Part shown: piece by piece, positions 1-41,038 of the stretch
Position numbering within the stretch: the stretch's first letter is position 1
Layout: each line of letters begins with the position of its first letter
IMG/VR virus record: IMGVR_UViG_2909262264_000002
Coordinates: 1-41,038 of that record
Reading direction: 5' to 3' (one strand)
Source of the DNA: a virus
Taxonomy: Duplodnaviria; Heunggongvirae; Uroviricota; Caudoviricetes
Length of the DNA: 41,038 nt
Made by a program: the position numbers and the translations under genes
Notes under the pieces: model-generated
Told to the model about the DNA's origin: nothing
Seen by the model: only the letters and a program-made list of their open reading frames with translations
Database searches by the model: none

Positions 1-1074
1 TCATTTGTCGATTTCAATTTTGTCCCATTCCCGTCCACGGCTGTCCCTATACCGCGCCGCCATTGAATCTGATTTATGCCCGAGAAGACGTTGAGCAAAC
101 TTATCGCCAATCTGGTTCCGGTATAGCCTCGCTGACAGGCTACGCAGTTCATGGAATGTTGGCGGGTTTCCATCAAATGAGAGGCCAGATGCATTTCTCG
201 CCTTTGTAAAATACTTTGATACTGTTTTCGGGGAAAGCGGATCGTGATGCTTTGATGCGATTATAGTTTCACTGCTGCTGGCCTCCCTGCATTTCTGTAG
301 TGTATCAGCCAATGAGATATTGAGCGCGTCAATCGTTAGCGTTAGCGGAATGGCGAGTTTAGCCCCTGTTTTACTCTGTTTAATGTGAAGATGGTTGTCG
401 TTTATGTCTGACCATTTCATTCTGCACAAATCGCCGACTCTCTGCCCTGTAACGACGGCCAAATCCATCGCCAGCCTTAGCCAGATAGGGAGAGGTTCGG
501 CTGCATGGTAAATCTCGACATACTCATTAGCTGTCAGCCTTGAGCGCCTTACTTCTGACTTTGCTGTACGGGTTGCTGTTACCGGATTCGTTGCCACATG
601 CCCCTCGGCTATTGCTTCACGAAAAACGTCAACAAGGGTTGACCTGATTAATTTTGCGGAAGCTGCTTTACCTTCTGCTACGTAGGTGTTTAGCATTGCT
701 GCCACTTCTTTCGTTGATATGTCAGTGAGCGGTTTGTCCGGCAATTTTCTTCGGATTGCCCTGATTTTGCTGGCGTAGTCGAGTAGAGTTTTCGGCCTGA
801 TCCCCCTTTCGGTGAGGATTGTTTCATATCGGTCAAGCCACACATGAAGAGTGATTGCGTCACCGCCTTTAATTCTGTCTATTAGTGATTTGCGTCCGCT
901 GTCTGAGAGTAATTCAATATTGGCCTGTATTGCTTCAGTGATTGCTATCCTCCTGTCTCGGCCTAAACCAAACTCTTTACCCGTCCTTGGGTCCCTGTAG
1001 CAGTAATATCCATTGTTTCTTATATAAAGGTTAGGGGGTAAATCCCGGCGCTCATGACTTCGCCTTCTTCCCAT
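1..1074 (-). CDS. int: Tyrosine integrase, lambda Int family (357 aa)
   Basis: ORF translation starts MGRRRSHERRDLPPNLYIRNNGYYCYRDPRTGKEFGLG and ends with the R..HxxR..Y catalytic region, nearly colinear with lambda Int as I remember it; stop codon at 1..3. Confidence 0.95.
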   Translation of the reverse strand: MGRRRSHERRDLPPNLYIRNNGYYCYRDPRTGKEFGLGRDRRIAITEAIQANIELLSDSGRKSLIDRIKGGDAITLHVWLDRYETILTERGIRPKTLLDYASKIRAIRRKLPDKPLTDISTKEVAAMLNTYVAEGKAASAKLIRSTLVDVFREAIAEGHVATNPVTATRTAKSEVRRSRLTANEYVEIYHAAEPLPIWLRLAMDLAVVTGQRVGDLCRMKWSDINDNHLHIKQSKTGAKLAIPLTLTIDALNISLADTLQKCREASSSETIIASKHHDPLSPKTVSKYFTKARNASGLSFDGNPPTFHELRSLSARLYRNQIGDKFAQRLLGHKSDSMAARYRDSRGREWDKIEIDK

Positions 1075-4578: not shown

Positions 4579-4794
4579 TCACCGTTCCTTAAAGACGCCG
4601 TTTAACATGCCGATCGCCAGGCTTAAATGAGTCGGTGTGAATCCCATCAGCGTTACCGTTTCGCGGTGCTTCTTCAGTACGCTACGGCAAATGTCATCGA
4701 CGTTTTTATCCGGAAACTGCTGTCTGGCTTTTTTGATTTCAGAATTAGCCTGACGGGCAATACTGCGAAGGGCGTTTTCCTGCTGATGTGTCAT
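4579..4794 (-). CDS. Hypothetical protein (about 71 aa from internal Met; ORF track extends to 4860)
   Basis: ORF track; start choice uncertain. Confidence 0.35.
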   Translation of the reverse strand: MTHQQENALRSIARQANSEIKKARQQFPDKNVDDICRSVLKKHRETVTLMGFTPTHLSLAIGMLNGVFKER

Positions 4795-33816: not shown

Positions 33817-34548
33817 ATGAGTTTAGCGCAGCCAAAATCAGGAGAACTGTTAGATCTTCTGACTCCTTCATTAACTAAGGGTGAAAACCTTCTGAGTGAG
33901 TTTGAAATCCATCGAATCATTCGTGAAGCGAAGAAACTACCTGAACGTTATCAGGGGCTATCAATTGAAGGCTTAGCTAAGCTTGTTCTTGGTGAAATAG
34001 ATGAAGGATGTTCACTCTGTGAGCGGGGGTTGAGAATAGCGCCTAACGATCCAGTTTCTTTTTGTAACTATACGATTGCGCTGCGTAACTTAGGTTTGCA
34101 TGCTCGCCAGTATGTGATGATTCAGAAAGCATCTGATTCACTTAATCCAACGATATTGGCTGAGGTTGCTACAATTTCTGCATACTGGGTTGATATCGAT
34201 TTGCTTGAAAAGGTGATGCCGATGCTAACTGCAATGGAAGTACCGCGCCCTGAAGATATGGGCAAATGGTATGACACGCTCAATTATCTGCATACCCAAA
34301 AAGATCATGCTCAGGAGCTAAAAACTATTGGGCGGCTCATGATGAACGTTGCAGAAAAGTACCGCGCTCGTCTTGCTGGCGCTCATGCTTTTTATGTAAT
34401 GTCAGAACTTGATACGCTGTTCGTTGAAGTCAAAACAGACGATCCAGTGCTTCTTTCGCAGATGAATAATGCCTTGGCTGATGAGATTATTATTGCGGGG
34501 CTTGCGGATTCAGAATGCGTCGGATGCTTTGAAGCCGGGGAACTCTAA
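33817..34548 (+). CDS. Unknown protein A of the two-gene cassette (243 aa)
   Basis: Two CxxC motifs (CSLC near residue 65, CVGC near residue 232); SD-like AGGAATAA upstream; no homolog recognised. Confidence 0.6.
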   Translation: MSLAQPKSGELLDLLTPSLTKGENLLSEFEIHRIIREAKKLPERYQGLSIEGLAKLVLGEIDEGCSLCERGLRIAPNDPVSFCNYTIALRNLGLHARQYVMIQKASDSLNPTILAEVATISAYWVDIDLLEKVMPMLTAMEVPRPEDMGKWYDTLNYLHTQKDHAQELKTIGRLMMNVAEKYRARLAGAHAFYVMSELDTLFVEVKTDDPVLLSQMNNALADEIIIAGLADSECVGCFEAGEL

Positions 34549-34976
34549 TGTCGGTTGAGCATACCTGTTTTCTTGAATTGGCTAAGCATTCCCTGGCTCT
34601 AAACGGTGAGATGTGGACGAGAAATGCTATTAGCCGAGCATACTATGGTATGTACCATTCCGCCTTACGGATCACCAACAATCTGGTACCGACCGCTACA
34701 CAAGATGGTGAAAAACTAAAAGGTGGAGTTCACATGCGAGTCTATACGGCCTTTTGTAGTGGTGAGGCAGCTGCACTTAACGATGTTGATGTTAACGCAG
34801 TAAAGAAAATCGGCGTTAAACTGAAAATGACGCATGCCCAACGTGTTAATTCTGATTACAAGCTTGAGCGGAAAATCAACCGGATTACCGCGAGAAGTGT
34901 AATTCTGGATGCGGAAGAGGTCGATGCAATCGTTAATCAATTACTGAAGATTGGTGATGACTCGTTAACTGCATAA
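34548..34976 (+). CDS. Unknown protein B of the two-gene cassette (142 aa), possible HEPN-like R-x6-H motif
   Basis: Start ATG overlaps the stop of protein A (TAATG); N-terminal RAYYGMYH fits the R-x(4-6)-H pattern of HEPN-type nucleases (weak, motif-level only). Confidence 0.6.
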   Translation: MSVEHTCFLELAKHSLALNGEMWTRNAISRAYYGMYHSALRITNNLVPTATQDGEKLKGGVHMRVYTAFCSGEAAALNDVDVNAVKKIGVKLKMTHAQRVNSDYKLERKINRITARSVILDAEEVDAIVNQLLKIGDDSLTA

Positions 34977-34993
34977 GCTGAAATTTCTCAAAA

Positions 34994-35024
34994 TTCAAAC
35001 CCGCCACTTGGCGGGTTTTTTGCT
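34994..35024 (+). terminator. Strong intrinsic terminator after the cassette
   Basis: AACCCGCC-ACTT-GGCGGGTT hairpin followed by TTTTTGCTTT. Confidence 0.7.
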
Positions 35025-35040
35025 TTCTGGAGCCTACTAA

Positions 35041-35793
35041 ATGGCAGTATCTGACCAGACCCGCAGCGGCGACCTTGCCGAAACATTTAAATCTGAACGG
35101 GAAACAACAAAGAACCAGATCCGTGTCGCCTTGCCTGGCATTGTTCAGTCATTCGCTCCTGATGCGGTGACGGCGGTTGTACAGCCTGCTATCCGTTACG
35201 TTGAAATTGATAACGACGGCAACCGCATTACCAAAAATTACCCATTGCTGGTGGATGTGCCAGTGGTATTCCCGCGTGGCGGAGGCTGTACGCTAACGTT
35301 TCCAGTTAAAGCCGGTGATGAATGTTTGGTGATTTTTGCCGATCGTTGTATTGATTTCTGGTGGCAGAGTGGCGGGATACAGGAGCCGGTCGATGACAGA
35401 ATGCATGATTTATCGGATGCGTTTTGTATTGTCGGTCCCCAGTCGCAGGCAAGGAAGATTAGCGGTATTAATACCAGTGCCACACAGTTGCGTAGTGATG
35501 ACGGCAGCACCTATTTTGAGCTTAATCCTGATACCAGGAAAATTAAAATTGTCGCTCCGGGGGGCCTTGATGTGGTTGCCCCTCTGGCTGATTTTTCTGA
35601 GAAAGTAACCATTCATGGCCTGTTAACCTGGATGGGAGGCATGGTGGGGTCTGTTGTTTCTGGTGTGGCTTCAAAAATCACTGGTGCTGTTGAGTTTTTG
35701 GGTAGCGTGAAGGCTAACGGCAAGCCAATCGATGATACGCACACTCATGGTGGTGTTCAGCGCGGTGGAAGCAATACCGACGGAGTAAACTGA
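35041..35793 (+). CDS. Baseplate spike / assembly protein V (250 aa)
   Basis: Position and size; Gly-rich C-terminus. Confidence 0.65.
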   Translation: MAVSDQTRSGDLAETFKSERETTKNQIRVALPGIVQSFAPDAVTAVVQPAIRYVEIDNDGNRITKNYPLLVDVPVVFPRGGGCTLTFPVKAGDECLVIFADRCIDFWWQSGGIQEPVDDRMHDLSDAFCIVGPQSQARKISGINTSATQLRSDDGSTYFELNPDTRKIKIVAPGGLDVVAPLADFSEKVTIHGLLTWMGGMVGSVVSGVASKITGAVEFLGSVKANGKPIDDTHTHGGVQRGGSNTDGVN

Positions 35794-36146
35794 TGCGATA
35801 CAGACGTGAAGACGCCGATGGCGATTACACCTTTGGCAGCGGTGATGACACCTGGCTGATTAACTCGCCTGAGGCCGTAGCGCAGGCTGTGAAAACGCGA
35901 TTCGAATTGTGGTATGGGCAATGGTTTCTTGATACCACAGAGGGAACACCGTGGATCCAGTCCGTGCTGGGCAGGCAAAAACCAGAAACTTACAACCTGG
36001 CGATCCGTAAGCGCATCCTCGAAACGCAGGGCGTTAAATCAATCCTCTCTTTCAATACGACGGTGGATACCACGACCCGACGTGTCATGTTTTCCGCTGA
36101 AATCGACACTCTCTATGGAATAACGACTGTTACATCGGAGGCGTAA
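35793..36146 (+). CDS. Baseplate protein (gpW-like, 117 aa)
   Basis: Size and position between V and J. Confidence 0.6.
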   Translation: MRYRREDADGDYTFGSGDDTWLINSPEAVAQAVKTRFELWYGQWFLDTTEGTPWIQSVLGRQKPETYNLAIRKRILETQGVKSILSFNTTVDTTTRRVMFSAEIDTLYGITTVTSEA

Positions 36147-37345
36147 TGGCTCTGAACCTTGATTCTCTCGGTTTATCTGCAAAGGTAACCGCGGAGGGGA
36201 TCGGTGCGCCTGATTATCAGACGATACTCAGCACCCTGATTAGCTATTTTCAGCAGATTTATGGCAGTGATGCCTACCTCGAACCGGACAGCAAAGACGG
36301 CCAGATGGTGGCTCTGATGGCGCTGGCGATTCATGATGCCAATAATATGGCGATAACTGTCTACAACTGTTTTTCACCGGCAACCGGCTATGGGGTTGCA
36401 CTGACCAGTAACGTGAAAATAAATGGTATTTCACGTAAAGGCGCGACGAACTCTACGGTTGATTTGCTTCTTACAGGAACTGCCGGAACAACCATCATTA
36501 ATGGCAGTGTGAAAGACAGTAATAATGTGATATGGCGTTTGCCTGCTTCAGTGGTGGTCGGCGTGGATGGTACAGTGATGGTGACCGCAATATGTTCCGT
36601 CAGTGGTGCAGTGGCGGCGCTGGCTGGAACTATCACTGAAATTAATACACCAACCCGTGGCTGGGTTTCGGTAACCAATCCTGCTGCAGCCACTGTGGGC
36701 ACTCCGGCAGAAACTGATGCGGAGTTACGTATCCGTCAGTCGCAAAGTGTTGCGTTGCCATCAATAACCCCATTTGAAGCACTGGATGGTGCTGTTTCTA
36801 ATGTTGCCGGTGTAACCCGCCACAAACTCTATGAAAACGATACTGGTTCGGAGGACGGTAACGGGTTACCGCCACACTCTGTTGCTGTAATTGTGGATGG
36901 CGGTGATGTGACGGATATTGCTCAGGCTATCAGAGGGAATAAAGGCCAAGGGACATCCACTCACGGTACAACATCCGTTACGGTTCCGGATAAATACGGC
37001 AATCCCCATGTAATCAAATTCTCGCGCTCTAGTGATGTGCCTGTTTATGCCCGGATTAAATTAAAAGTTTTTACGGGTTATACCTCACAGATAGGGCAGC
37101 AGATCCAGCAGGCTATTTCCGACTATATCAATAGTCTGATGATTGGTGATTCGGTCCTTTTAAGTCGCATTTACTCACCGGCGAATCTTGGCGTGGTGAG
37201 TGGCGGGAATGCACGCTATTACGATATTCAGGAACTGACGATTGGGAAATCCCCGGGGGCTTTGTCGTCATCAAACATTGATATCAGATACAACGAATCT
37301 GCGTCCTGTACACCGGAAAATATCGTTATAACGGTGGAGTCATGA
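36146..37345 (+). CDS. Baseplate J-like protein (399 aa)
   Basis: Size and position. Confidence 0.7.
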   Translation: MALNLDSLGLSAKVTAEGIGAPDYQTILSTLISYFQQIYGSDAYLEPDSKDGQMVALMALAIHDANNMAITVYNCFSPATGYGVALTSNVKINGISRKGATNSTVDLLLTGTAGTTIINGSVKDSNNVIWRLPASVVVGVDGTVMVTAICSVSGAVAALAGTITEINTPTRGWVSVTNPAAATVGTPAETDAELRIRQSQSVALPSITPFEALDGAVSNVAGVTRHKLYENDTGSEDGNGLPPHSVAVIVDGGDVTDIAQAIRGNKGQGTSTHGTTSVTVPDKYGNPHVIKFSRSSDVPVYARIKLKVFTGYTSQIGQQIQQAISDYINSLMIGDSVLLSRIYSPANLGVVSGGNARYYDIQELTIGKSPGALSSSNIDIRYNESASCTPENIVITVES

Positions 37346-38022
37346 GCAAATATACCGAACTAATCACGAACTACCACGCCACCAAACCTAAATTTCTTGC
37401 ACATGTTGATCTGATGACCCGGCCGCTTATTGATGTTGCGGCGGCCACCAGAGGGCTGATTACTGCATTTGATATTGACTCTGCGGTTGGTGTGCAACTT
37501 GACATTCTGGGATTGTGGATCGGACGTAGCCGTGTTGTCAGCCAGCCTATCTCAGGTGTCTATTTCAGTTGGGATACCGACGGGCTTGGATATGATCAGG
37601 GTGTATGGCAGGGGCCATACGATCCTGATTCCGGATACATGTACCTCAGCGATGAAACTTATCGTGTCATCCTTAAAGCGAAGATTGCGATTAATAACTG
37701 GGACGGACGGAATGATTCGCTTCCAGCAATTCTTGACGCTGCAACAGCAGGATCCGGGCTGCGAATGCAGATAGTCGATAACCAGGACATGACGATATCG
37801 GTCTGGGTCTTTCCTGATACTGATATTTCAGATGTATCGCGTGAGTTAATTGCGGCAATTAAACAGGGGTATCTAACAGTAAAAGCCGCCGGGGTATGGG
37901 CGGGGGGCATTGAAACACCTTCGGTGGAAACTCCATCGGAAGGCTCTAAATTTTTTGGTTTTGATATGGATAACGAATTCATCAGTGGTTTTGATGTAGG
38001 GGCATGGGGAGTATTACTCTGA
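37342..38022 (+). CDS. Baseplate/tail protein I-like (226 aa)
   Basis: Position between J and the tail fibre. Confidence 0.6.
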
Positions 38023-38855
38023 TGGCGAAAAATGACTTTAAAGCGTTTGCAACTGATCGAAATGCCAATGTTATGTCGCAGGAGGAATGGGAAGCGTTGC
38101 CTGCGCTTATATCCGGATTTACAGCAGGGAAAGCATCCAGTGCGCAAGTCAATAAGGTTATTCGGCAGGCCAGCTTTATTGCTGCAGCTCTGGCCCAGTT
38201 TGTAAGTGATAAAACGCAACGGGATGTGCTTGATAATGGTGATCTGCCCGGTTTTGTTGAATTGCTGGGATCGGGGTTTGCTGTTGAATACCTGAGCCGC
38301 AAGAATCCGTTTGGCGATATCAAATCGGACGGCACGGTGAAAACGGCTCTCGAAAACCTTGGTTTGGGAGAAGGCTCAGCATTACCTGTTGGGGTGCCTG
38401 TTCCGTGGCCTTCAGCCACTCCGCCAACAGGCTGGCTGAAATGCAATGGTGCGGCTTTTTCTGCTGAAGAATACCCGGAACTGGCAAAGGCTTACCCGAC
38501 AAATAAATTGCCTGATTTACGCGGTGAATTTATTCGTGGATGGGATGATGAACGTGGTGTGGATAGTGGGCGAACTCTGCTTTCATCGCAAGGAGATGCT
38601 ATTCGAAACATTACTGGCGGTTTTGGTCAGTTGCGCGTAAACAGCGAAATTAATGCAATTGTCGATGTTCAAAGTGTGAGTGGGGCTTTTTACGGAGGTA
38701 CCTCAGTCCGGAATAACATCAATGTGTCTATGACATACGCTAATGACCGAAAAATCCGACAAGATGTTCACTTCTCGGCGGCAAATGTTGTTCCAACAGC
38801 AAATGAAAATCGTCCACGTAACATCGCCTTTAATTATATTGTGAGGGCTGCATGA
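38022..38855 (+). CDS. Tail fibre protein (about 277 aa), C-terminal part inside the invertible segment
   Basis: Phage tail-collar-like motif PVPWP...GWL.CNG...YP.L...LPDLRG.F.RG; start ATG overlaps the upstream stop (TGATG). Confidence 0.8.
38350..38376. repeat. Left crossover site of the invertible segment (cix/gix-like)
   Basis: TCGAAAACCTTGGTTTGGGAGAAGG is the reverse complement (near-perfect) of the site at about 40251..40277. Confidence 0.6.
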
Positions 38856-39457
38856 TGAATAAAGCTGTATTAAATAGTGAACTCATTGCCATAAAAGCGG
38901 GAGACATTATCATTTATAATTATGATGGTGAAACGCGTGAATATATTTCTACATCAACTGAATATCTCGCTGTCGGCGTCGGTATCCCGGCATGTTCTTG
39001 TTTGGATGCACCAGGTACACATAAAGCTGGTTATGCAATCTGTCGCTCTGTAGATTTAAATTCATGGGAATATGTGCCAGATCATCGTGGTGAAATCGTC
39101 TATAGCACCGAAACAGGAGAATCGAAAAAAATCACAGCTCCGGGTGATTATCCTGAAAATACAACCACTATCGCCCCGTTAACGCCATACGATAAATGGA
39201 ATGGTGAGAAATGGGTGACAGATACCGAGGCACAGCACGGCGCAGCAGTAGATGCAGCAGAAGCACTGCGCCAGTCGCTGATTCATACTGCAATGGCCTC
39301 CATCAGTCTGATTCAACTGAAATTACAGGCCGGACGGAATCTGACGCAGGCAGAAACAACCCGCCTTAACGCTGTGCTGGATTACATTGACGCGGTGACG
39401 GCAACAGATACCAGCACCGCGCCGGATGTCATCTGGCCTGAACTGCCGGAGGCGTAG
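38852..39457 (+). CDS. Tail fibre assembly protein (201 aa)
   Basis: Position after the fibre gene; conserved C-terminal Tfa-like region (DY.DA...TDTS.APDV.WPE). Confidence 0.8.
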
Positions 39458-39872
39458 GCCATTCAATATCTGGCGCACCGGAAGTATCGATCAGCTCCAG
39501 TGCGTCCAGATAATCCAGCCACAAATTATATTGCGCCAGTTCGTCACCTTTCAGACGACCAATAGCGGCTTTACCGGGCCATTGCTTACTGTTCATGTAT
39601 TCGTTGGCCAGGTTAATTAGTAGCTGTCTTTCTGATTCAGTAATTTCAATAAGCTCTTCGTGAGTAGGTGGAGGAATATCTGCCCACGCAGGTAGTCCAT
39701 CCTCTCCCGCAATACGGACTTTTCCTTGTGGCGGTTCAGCCATAAACTCACTGACAATATTTTGATTCACCTCCTTAGCATCTGATAAATCCCATCCCTC
39801 TGATTTATATTTATCAATCATATCCACAGGGAAAAAAGCATTATGCCTTGCGCTATAAACATATTCGTTCAT
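39429..39872 (-). CDS. Alternative tail fibre assembly protein (147 aa), inverted orientation
   Basis: C-terminal [23 protein letters not shown] parallels the plus-strand Tfa C-terminus; convergent arrangement typical of G/C/P-type invertible segments. Confidence 0.8.
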   Translation of the reverse strand: MNEYVYSARHNAFFPVDMIDKYKSEGWDLSDAKEVNQNIVSEFMAEPPQGKVRIAGEDGLPAWADIPPPTHEELIEITESERQLLINLANEYMNSKQWPGKAAIGRLKGDELAQYNLWLDYLDALELIDTSGAPDIEWPTPPAVQAR

Positions 39873-39893
39873 ATTAAATCACCCTGAATAAAA

Positions 39894-40268
39894 TTACTCG
39901 CCAACAGCCCACCAACAGTAATTCATGGTAACAGTTGGACTTGTCGAGGTTGTTCTAAAGGCAGAATAAAACCCTGTTAACCCTGGCTCTTCAGTTGTCA
40001 TCATAAAACCACGACCACTCCCGGCAGTTGAACCACCATCACCAGAATGTGAAAGCAAGGCAATATCAGCTTTTTTAGGGAAAGGTATATTAAATTCTAC
40101 CCGTAGTGTCTGACTCGCAAGCGTAGGAGACACACGCCCACGACCATATTGCAGGATTTTCCCGTTGGGTAATTTCATCCATCCATCACCACTGGCAAAA
40201 GAGGCCATGTCCGGTATCTGATTCGCCCCTGTCCCCACATCCCGTTTTGCCGCTTCTCCCAAACCAAC
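39894..40268 (-). CDS. Alternative tail-fibre C-terminal segment (start-less until inverted)
   Basis: Minus-strand frame is open from the crossover site; it encodes ...[15 protein letters not shown]..., sharing the GLGE junction with the expressed fibre ([10 protein letters not shown]). Confidence 0.6.
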
Positions 40269-40277
40269 GTTTATGAA
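40251..40277. repeat. Right crossover site of the invertible segment (cix/gix-like)
   Basis: TTCTCCCAAACCAACGTTTATGAAAAT, resembling Gin/Cin/Pin recombination sites as I remember them. Confidence 0.6.
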
Positions 40278-40333
40278 AATGCAGAAATAACGAGCAAATG
40301 GCATCATTCCTGCTTTTGTCAGGGGGAGCTACC

Positions 40334-40447
40334 ATGCTTATTGGCTATGTACGCGTATCAACAAATGACCAGAACACAGATCTACAACGTAATGCGCTGA
40401 ACTGTGCAGGATGCGAGCTGATTTTTGAAGACAAGATAAGTAGTGCT
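40334..40447 (+). pseudogene. Serine DNA invertase (Pin/Gin/Cin family) remnant: only the first ~36 codons
   Basis: MLIGYVRVSTNDQNTDLQRNALNCAGCELIFEDKIS matches invertase N-termini including the catalytic Ser in YVRVST; homology ends abruptly and the frame runs into unrelated AT-rich sequence. Confidence 0.75.
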
Positions 40448-41038
40448 ATGGGGGTTAGGCATTATAATTGGTTGTTAAAAATCAATAAGTTTTGTATTGT
40501 TGTGATGATATTACCATCATGTTACAAGGTGTGGATTTTGGCGAAGTTACTATATGTAAAACCTATAACGATAAAAAAAGCAAATGAATTTGTTTCTATT
40601 TATCATCGACACCATCGACCAACGTCAAGGAATTCGGGCAGATGGGCTATAGCTGCCTACCACATAGATTCTGATGAATTGGTTGGTGTAGCGATAGTTG
40701 GAAATCCCGTATCTGCAACGTACATGGATGGTGTGACGGCAGAGATTACACGATTATGTGTCAGTGACAAATCTCCAAAAGGAACTTGCTCCTTTCTGAT
40801 TAGTCGATGTAGCACAATCTGGAAAATGATGGGAGGAGAAAAAATTATTACCTATACTCTAAGCAGTGAAACAGGCGCATCTTTAAAAGGTGCTGGGTGG
40901 CAGTTAGTTGGGACTGTACATCCTCATAATCGTTGGGCCGATAAAGCAAAGCAGGATGGAATAATTAGGGATAATTTAGAAATATATAAACTGAAGAAAT
41001 TTCGTTGGGAATGTTTACTCGGGGAGGTTCTAATATGA
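40448..41038 (+). CDS. Unknown protein encoded in-frame downstream of the invertase remnant (true start unknown)
   Basis: Markedly AT-rich DNA by eye; translation ...ANEFVSIYHRHHRPTSRNSGRWAIAAYHIDSDELVGVAIVGNPVSATYMDGVTAEITRLCV...KGAGWQLVG...; in-frame Met candidates at about 40448 and 40505; stop at the window end. Confidence 0.4.
   Translation: MGVRHYNWLLKINKFCIVVMILPSCYKVWILAKLLYVKPITIKKANEFVSIYHRHHRPTSRNSGRWAIAAYHIDSDELVGVAIVGNPVSATYMDGVTAEITRLCVSDKSPKGTCSFLISRCSTIWKMMGGEKIITYTLSSETGASLKGAGWQLVGTVHPHNRWADKAKQDGIIRDNLEIYKLKKFRWECLLGEVLI

Follow-up and report, generated by a model that had tools for sequence, protein, structure and literature searches.

Whether an invertible tail-fibre segment can still switch after its own invertase gene has been destroyed is the question raised by the right end of IMG/VR virus record IMGVR_UViG_2909262264_000002 (Caudoviricetes), a stretch of 41,038 nucleotides (nt) that was analysed at its full length and is referred to here as the window. 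Close to that end, two alternative receptor-binding ends of a tail fibre are encoded on opposite strands between inverted crossover sites, and the adjacent DNA invertase gene, pin, is reduced to a stub. A preliminary description of the locus held the segment to be probably locked. That view is not supported here: the same allele beside the same stub is inverted in a related Escherichia coli locus, a second allele is found in opposite orientations in a further pair of stub-bearing loci, and a region homologous to the recombinational enhancer is retained in the stub. With good confidence, the element is an orphan fibre switch of the e14 P type, carried by an E. coli prophage at torS/torT and inverted by a compatible invertase made elsewhere in the cell.

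Crossover sites and orientation of the segment

A repeat finder places inverted arms of 20 nt at 38354-38373 and 40253-40272, with one mismatch (95% complementary) and 1879 nt between them; complementarity is perfect over 15 nt (38359-38373 and 40253-40267). Aligned as 26-mers, the two pix-type sites (Table 1) read TTCTCCCAAACC-AA-GGTTTTCGAGAG on the minus strand at the left site and TTCTCCCAAACC-AA-CGTTTATGAAAA on the plus strand at the right site: they share the central dinucleotide and the inner half-site, are unlike in their outer half-sites, and stand in inverted orientation (cores TT and AA). Shared inner halves and core together with differing outer halves are the usual anatomy of hix, gix, cix, and pix sites. 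A 19-nt pattern (TTCTCCCAAACCAASGTTT) that extends from the inner half-site through the core into the outer half is matched with at most 2 mismatches exactly twice in the 41 kb and in none of 100 dinucleotide-preserving shuffles. Each site is identical at 26 of 26 nt to a site of the e14 P segment of K-12 MG1655 (left 2779-2804 and right 4606-4631 of locus L004), a segment whose inversion has been shown experimentally and for which the inverted repeat TTGGTTTGGGAGAAGG has been given (PMC12529663).

Repeat finder, 26-mer alignment, and shuffles thus agree on the inverted pair of sites that the preliminary description had placed at the segment ends; its coordinates (38350-38376 and 40251-40277) hold to within 1-4 nt, but its two arms were one base out of register. 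Its placement of a GLGE junction at the crossover core is correct, as the inner half-site GGT TTG GGA GAA translates to GLGE on both strands. There are exactly 2 sites in the window, rather than the more than two crossover sites of Min (p15B) or an R64-type shufflon, and additional pix-like sites among relatives occur only in one rearranged locus (L006, described below).

The opposite orientation of the window's own allele is found in locus L020 (E. coli, Logan assembly ERR12083686). Compared with the window after in-silico inversion of the segment, L020 differs by a single nucleotide polymorphism (SNP), at 35562, in 9017 bp; compared with the unflipped window it has 1388 mismatches, all of which lie within 38374-40252 except the SNP at 35562. 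L020 carries the same gene of 234 amino acids (aa) in which the pin stub runs into an XF1762-family sequence, followed by a 344-aa gene and torT. The fibre (236 aa) and the short open reading frame (ORF; 177 aa) predicted for the flipped state are both present, as exact matches, in public data under the neighbouring accessions EOY3533094.1 and EOY3533091.

Since these prophages are mosaic, a difference in orientation alone could reflect the import of a cassette, and pairs with identical sequence were therefore sought. Opposite orientations among five complete genomes were rejected as proof of inversion, because the segments concerned are only ~88% identical and mosaic. A suitable pair is formed by L005 (E. 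coli MEI1A-0323, argW site) and L009 (GCA_037165205.1), which represent a second allele: both bear the stub, their segments are identical but inverted, and their flanks match at 100% for 2902 and 4949 bp. When L005 is flipped at the cores, it matches L009 with 0 mismatches in 9693 bp. In the flipped pairs, the asymmetric bases that adjoin the core on its outer side (38358 and 40268) remain linked to the flanking DNA, so exchange took place within a 15-bp interval comprising the core and the inner half-site; to judge from the aligned sequences, this interval is consistent with cleavage at the central dinucleotide.

Two ways of obtaining opposite orientations other than site-specific inversion bear on these pairs. 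Homologous import of an opposed segment between prophages, or RecA-mediated recombination across the short repeats, draws some support from the strong mosaicism of the prophages, among which exchange of cassettes by general recombination clearly occurs; it is very improbable here, given that flanks and segment are identical in both pairs apart from the one SNP, that the switch point lies within the 15-bp interval, and that 15 nt of perfect repeat are too few for RecA to recombine efficiently. Artefacts of public assemblies are barely credible as the source. Short-read assemblers can mis-join at repeats, and L020 comes from a Logan short-read assembly, but the repeat measures only 15-20 nt, which is probably shorter than the usual assembly k-mers; the flipped state recurs in several independent assemblies, including the chromosome-level RefSeq assemblies of MEI1A-0323 and MEI2O1-23, and the exact flipped proteins are held under two accessions.

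Among the stub-bearing loci, the collar-type fibre tip is in the expressed position in the window, L001, L009-L011, L015-L017, and L021-L023, and the Gp53-like tip in L005, L008, L012, and L020. Their segments are 82-93% identical and their stub-XF1762 protein is 100% conserved; the segment of L010 is 100% identical to that of the window and has the same orientation. The exact truncation junction, sought in viral and metagenome contigs, was found in only 4 loci, 3 of them collar-expressed and 1 too short, which add little to this count. A fossil segment should show one orientation among relatives with the same truncation, whereas both orientations are found at the identical stub-XF1762 junction. 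The alignments indicate that the segment has inverted recently, and at least two times independently, in prophages that themselves lack an invertase.

Fibre cassettes and the short open reading frame

Both versions of the fibre take their start codon and baseplate-proximal part from the constant N-terminus. Its start overlaps the stop of the DUF2612/wedge gene, residues 1-122 of the fibre match PHROG 11303 and PHROG 1396 ("tail fiber protein"), and it is 98-99% identical among related prophages with the segment in either orientation. The tip joined to it in the window (tip A) is 60% identical to K-12 StfE over 171 aa (blastp) and, by sequence, matches two PDB entries, 9cuy ("Short tail fiber", E = 2.9e-27) and the T4 gp37 tip 2xgf (E = 7e-17); the chaperone encoded next to it is 89.5% identical to K-12 TfaE. 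The alternative tip (tip B) matches PHROG 4890 (E = 1.4e-54) and the tail fiber group PHROG 1396 (E = 1.7e-31). Its best match in a PDB sequence search (E = 0.046) is not significant, and its assignment as Gp53-like follows from the Pfam and PHROG matches; its chaperone is 54% identical to K-12 TfaP. In-silico inversion of 38359-40267 brings the constant part in frame with tip B, giving the 236-aa fibre in place of the 277-aa one. By Pfam, the two tips belong to different fold families (Collar and Gp53-like_C), and by analogy with Mu G and P1 C they may confer different host ranges.

The Pfam and PHROG matches of all four ORFs bear out two fibre C-termini, each with its own Tfa, on opposite strands. 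The comparison with known domains that the preliminary description had called for gives Collar and the short tail fibre/gp37 structures for tip A and Gp53-like_C for tip B; a repeat pair and two recognisable tips are both present. Its parallel with the Mu G, P1 C, and e14 P architecture also stands, given that the sites are those of e14 and that inversion preserves the fibre frame. In the mechanism proposed, the window would be a complete-looking, lambdoid-regulated myovirus prophage of E. coli with a switch of the Gin/Cin/Hin/Pin family, in which the constant N-terminus would be read across the left site into one of two receptor-binding modules, each followed by its own Tfa: the orientation in the window would express the collar-type, StfE-like tip with the TfaE-like chaperone, and the inverted one the Gp53-like tip with the TfaP-like chaperone.

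A further product depends on the orientation of the segment. Between the right site and the pin stub lies the coding sequence of a 12-aa leader, which continues into the C-terminus that happens to face the stub; the leader of K-12 StfE is MPFACYFFIFIN, and the leader of the short ORF and the region upstream of it are nearly identical to e14. The exact 136-aa product of the window and the predicted 177-aa product of the flipped state are both annotated in public genomes. In K-12, PinQ-driven inversion of e14 creates StfE2, which blocks adsorption of T2 (PMC12529663, published in 2025). The switch could accordingly be kept mainly for the host, with the short ORF acting as a StfE2-like blocker of surface receptors that is toggled by the invertases of other prophages, that is, as a recombinase-activated defence against other phages instead of, or besides, host-range variation. 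The e14-like leader region, the StfE2 precedent, and the annotation of both versions speak for such a role; it is nevertheless unlikely, because the prophage looks complete from int to the fibres, for which an ordinary host-range role in the virion suffices, because the Gp53-like tip is unrelated to K-12 StfP, and because a simple promoter/terminator scan of 37900-41038 gave fewer promoter-like sites than shuffled sequence did, with none close to the stub, the short ORF, or the XF1762 gene.

Table 1. Features of the fibre switch and its surroundings (coordinates of the window)
Feature	Position	Strand	Basis and remarks
Fibre gene	38022-38855	+	Pfam Collar PF07484, E = 1.3e-15
Constant fibre N-terminus, 112 codons	38022-38358	+	ORF list; alternative ATG upstream at 38004
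Left crossover site, 26 bp, pix-type	38347-38372	-	Core dinucleotide 38359-38360
Invertible segment	38359-40267	.	1909 bp core to core; in-silico inversion of exactly this interval reproduces L020
Variable fibre C-terminus A, collar-type, StfE-like, joined to the constant part in the window	38361-38855	+	Pfam, PDB, blastp
Tfa chaperone for version A, TfaE-like, 201 aa	38852-39457	+	Caudo_TAP PF02413, E = 3e-31; PHROG 105
Tfa chaperone for version B, TfaP-like, 147 aa, silent orientation	39429-39872	-	Caudo_TAP, E = 3.3e-29; PHROG 188
Variable fibre C-terminus B, Gp53-like, unjoined in the window's orientation	39894-40265	-	Pfam Gp53-like_C PF21882, E = 1.8e-09
Short ORF, 136 aa: 12-aa leader plus the tip facing the stub	39894-40304	-	ORF list; counterpart of e14 stfE/stfE2
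Right crossover site, 26 bp	40254-40279	+	Core dinucleotide 40266-40267
DNA invertase gene stub	40334-40440	+	nt 1-107 of pinE, ~36 of 184 codons
Homologue of the Fis-dependent recombinational enhancer (Cin/Gin/Hin/Pin family)	40352-40423	+	Gapless alignment to P1 cin
Start of the replacing cassette, XF1762-family Mom-like gene	40441-41038	+	Domain 40556-41011; in frame with the pin stub

Invertase stub, enhancer homologue, and source of the enzyme

The stub is 100% identical to K-12 pinE through nt 107 (position 40440) and unrelated beyond that point in the alignment, and the intergenic region between the right site and the stub is essentially that of e14. It keeps the Ser9 motif YVRVSTNDQ and has lost most of the catalytic domain and the whole helix-turn-helix domain: the Pfam Resolvase model is matched at positions 2-45 of 145 only and HTH_7 is absent, compared with Resolvase at 3-135 and HTH_7 at 138-181 in intact PinE. 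The truncation of the adjacent invertase noted in the preliminary description is thus confirmed; there is no adjacent gene for a small serine invertase with both Resolvase and HTH_7, and tblastn with PinE over the 41-kb window detects no other serine recombinase. Comparison of L002 (intact pinE) with L005 (stub), which share an attachment site, shows ~0.5 kb (the 3' 448 nt of pin plus ~50 nt) replaced by 1.74 kb. The invertase would have been destroyed when this 1.74-kb cassette, made up of the Mom-like XF1762 gene and the 344-aa gene, replaced pin beyond nt 107.

Invertases of the Gin/Cin/Hin/Pin family need, besides two sites, a cis-acting enhancer bound by Fis. The coordinates of the enhancer homologue were taken from the P1 record, in which cin nt 19-90 carry the annotation "enhancer of Cin-mediated C-segment inversion"; in gapless alignment, 40352-40423 is identical to e14 pinE at 72 of 72 positions, to P1 cin at 57 of 72, and to Mu gin at 55 of 72. 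The whole region falls inside the 107 nt that survive and ends 17 nt short of the breakpoint. Two G-N13-C 15-mers lie within it (40355-40369 and 40404-40418), 49 nt apart from start to start, and the stub has no others; the centres of Fis sites are ~48 bp apart. From this homology we infer that the retained region acts as a Fis-dependent enhancer, and, at the level of sequence, all requirements in cis appear intact with the enzyme alone missing. For Hin, the enhancer lies ~100 bp from hixL (PMC3798978).

As the flipped stub-bearing loci have no invertase of their own, inversion must be driven in trans. The need for an enzyme supplied in trans had been stated in the preliminary description, and the non-functional stub and the absence of tblastn matches to any other serine recombinase in the 41 kb agree with it. 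Exchange of enzymes between such systems is documented (PMC12529663): the e14 P segment can be inverted by PinQ, which Qin encodes, the Salmonella H segment by Fin of Fels-2, and both Mu G and H by PinE. A paper on SfMu (PMC4406740) contains nothing on inversion in trans. The orphan substrate would accordingly be inverted by a PinE, PinQ/R, Gin/Cin-type, or Fin-type enzyme of other prophages, these being candidate sources.

A composite query, consisting of the XF1762-specific part and the 3' half of pinE, matches 2373 of 5426 complete E. coli genomes. Twelve rows of this result were inspected, and apparently five records contain the XF1762 part; with only five such records, nearly all of the matches should be to the pinE half. 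The query matches at 3 places in MEI1A-0323, at 2 in LH10-b-1, at 2 in PK8568, and at 1 in 09A19CPO009. The extra places could in principle be second copies of XF1762, since these are counts of places only and no invertase gene acting in trans was located in any particular stub-bearing genome.

The genome of LH10-b-1 (NZ_CP100530.1; L006 and L013) contains a rearranged copy of a stub-bearing prophage from which most tail and baseplate genes are missing. In L006 (1900-4700), at a distance of 2.3 kb from the stub, an intact 190-aa invertase with Resolvase and HTH_7 is encoded on the opposite strand; it and two additional pix-like sites (TTCCCCCAAACCAACGTTT...) adjoin N-terminally truncated fibre fragments. 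The arrangement suggests that crossover sites belonging to two different elements have recombined.

Several points weigh against an active switch in the window itself. The window shows one orientation only. The stub-bearing complete genome 09A19CPO009, with its single place, has no pinE-like gene at the megablast level, so some hosts may really be locked. The function of the enhancer rests on homology to one annotated record. In K-12, deletion of pinE is reported to leave the segment locked (PMC12529663), which implies that heterologous invertases at their native levels do not suffice in every case; the enhancer may have been lost in the same deletion.

One alternative is a locked fossil, in which the segment is frozen in the collar-expressed state in the window's host and the minus-strand cassette is decaying dead weight. 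The lack of an invertase in the window, the K-12 pinE mutant, the absence of a pinE-like 3' half from 09A19CPO009, and the predominance of collar-expressed states among the stub loci sampled would all fit. A fossil is nonetheless rather unlikely: the same allele has flipped beside the same stub in L020, the second allele has flipped with 0 mismatches in 9.7 kb, both ORFs on the silent strand are intact, with scores as good as those of the expressed ones, neither site carries a mutation relative to e14, and the enhancer homologue is intact. What doubt attaches to the preferred explanation, an orphan switch served from elsewhere in the cell, concerns the supply of invertase by the window's host and the effect on host range, for which the argument is one of analogy.

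It is a tentative possibility, though not the most probable one, that the truncation is a stable and perhaps selected "client" state, in which the stub is kept for its enhancer and the switch is run only by the invertases of other prophages. If so, variation in host range or in receptor blocking would depend on the mobilome of the lysogen, and the place vacated by the invertase gene would be taken by a cassette for Mom-like DNA modification, either expressed from the former pin start or fused to it. More generally, a truncated or missing invertase beside an invertible segment is no proof of a dead switch, as two sites and an enhancer in the stub suffice in cis and co-resident prophages can supply the enzyme. 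In prophage annotation, a "pseudogene invertase" therefore does not imply a fixed tail fibre, which bears on the prediction of host range for induced phages and on the recent idea that the invertases of one cryptic prophage remodel the fibre-like genes of another for defence.

Prophage context and comparison with known systems

The window spans from a lambda-type integrase gene (1-1074, minus strand) to the stop codon of the XF1762 gene (41036-41038). It starts exactly at the end of the integrase ORF and stops at the XF1762 stop, and so seems to have been cut at gene borders; the true prophage reaches ~1.4 kb further, to attR by torT, in L010, and its site, torS/torT, is the attachment site of HK022. 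The window is collinear, at 98-99.5% identity, with the prophage between torS and torT in E. coli 09A19CPO009, which has lambda-like early genes, lysis, terminase, and head genes, a contractile tail, and a baseplate. Its part from 34334 to 41038 is 100% identical to OZ040737.1 (L010), in which torT follows. The same fibre/stub module also occurs at argW/yfdC in prophages with an IntS-type integrase (L005 and L009), and some phage isolates combine this fibre module with a full invertase (e.g., vB_EcoM-606R2, 94.9% identity).

The gene at the breakpoint matches NCBIfam NF045478 (XF1762_fam, E = 5.6e-50) over residues 75-226 of the 234-aa ORF and PHROG 1384 ("Mom-like DNA modification protein", E = 1.7e-38); against Pfam Mom it scores 23.3 bits, under the 27.1-bit cut-off. 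The Prokaryotic Genome Annotation Pipeline (PGAP) annotates the 234-aa stub-XF1762 fusion, which is WP_000905006.1; five complete E. coli genomes carry it, and a large collection has it indexed in 611 blocks. Candidate starts for the Mom-like protein are the pin ATG and the internal codons M58 and L69. The second gene of the cassette (344 aa, phrog_30351) lies just beyond the end of the window (L010 6702-7736, the continuation of the cassette). PADLOC gave no meaningful match for the XF1762 protein or its 344-aa partner, and a literature search on XF1762 found no paper.

A slot at 33817-34976, just upstream of the baseplate spike gene, holds two ORFs of 243 and 142 aa with sub-threshold matches to TPR_17 (E = 0.023) and to HEPN_IX of PADLOC (E = 0.0094); related prophages have DUF2335, a YafO toxin, or DUF4282 there. 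It resembles a hotspot of variable cargo or defence genes within the tail operon.

Among known systems, Mu G with Gin and P1 C with Cin resemble the window in having a constant fibre part (Sc), two opposed Sv+U cassettes, and two inverted sites; the P1 record also has the enhancer within the 5' end of the invertase gene, and Mu has the same order at its right end, namely segment, invertase, and mom-like gene (gin-com-mom). They differ in size (~3 kb for Mu G and 4.2 kb for P1 C, against 1.9 kb in the window), in their tips, and in their sites, which are gix and cix rather than pix, and the window has no functional invertase in cis. The cases of cross-talk between invertases (PinQ on e14 P, Fin on H, and PinE on Mu G and H; PMC12529663) are alike in that the enzyme comes from another element. 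In those cases, however, the segment has, or had in the experiment, an invertase of its own, whereas for the window the foreign enzyme is obligatory, a state fixed in a widespread lineage.

The e14 P segment (stfP-tfaP / tfaE-stfE, pinE) comes closest, with identical sites, the GLGE junction, the 107 nt of pinE, a near-identical intergenic region, a StfE-like collar tip, and the TfaE-type chaperone (89.5% identity); core to core, it measures 1829 bp and the window's segment 1909 bp. The window departs from it in that the invertase is cut after 36 codons with a Mom-like cassette in its place, and in that the second tip is Gp53-like and unrelated to StfP, with a chaperone only 54% identical to TfaP. 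In addition, e14 is a 15-kb remnant at icd, whereas the window is a complete-looking 41-kb prophage at torS/torT. Public records already contain the concept, the sites, and the sequences; what is slightly new is the documented flipping of a copy that has no invertase and keeps the enhancer in the stub. An orphaned segment of the e14 P type is therefore the best description of the locus, which has the sites, the cassettes, the enhancer homologue, and the observed inversion of such a system and lacks only an invertase of its own.

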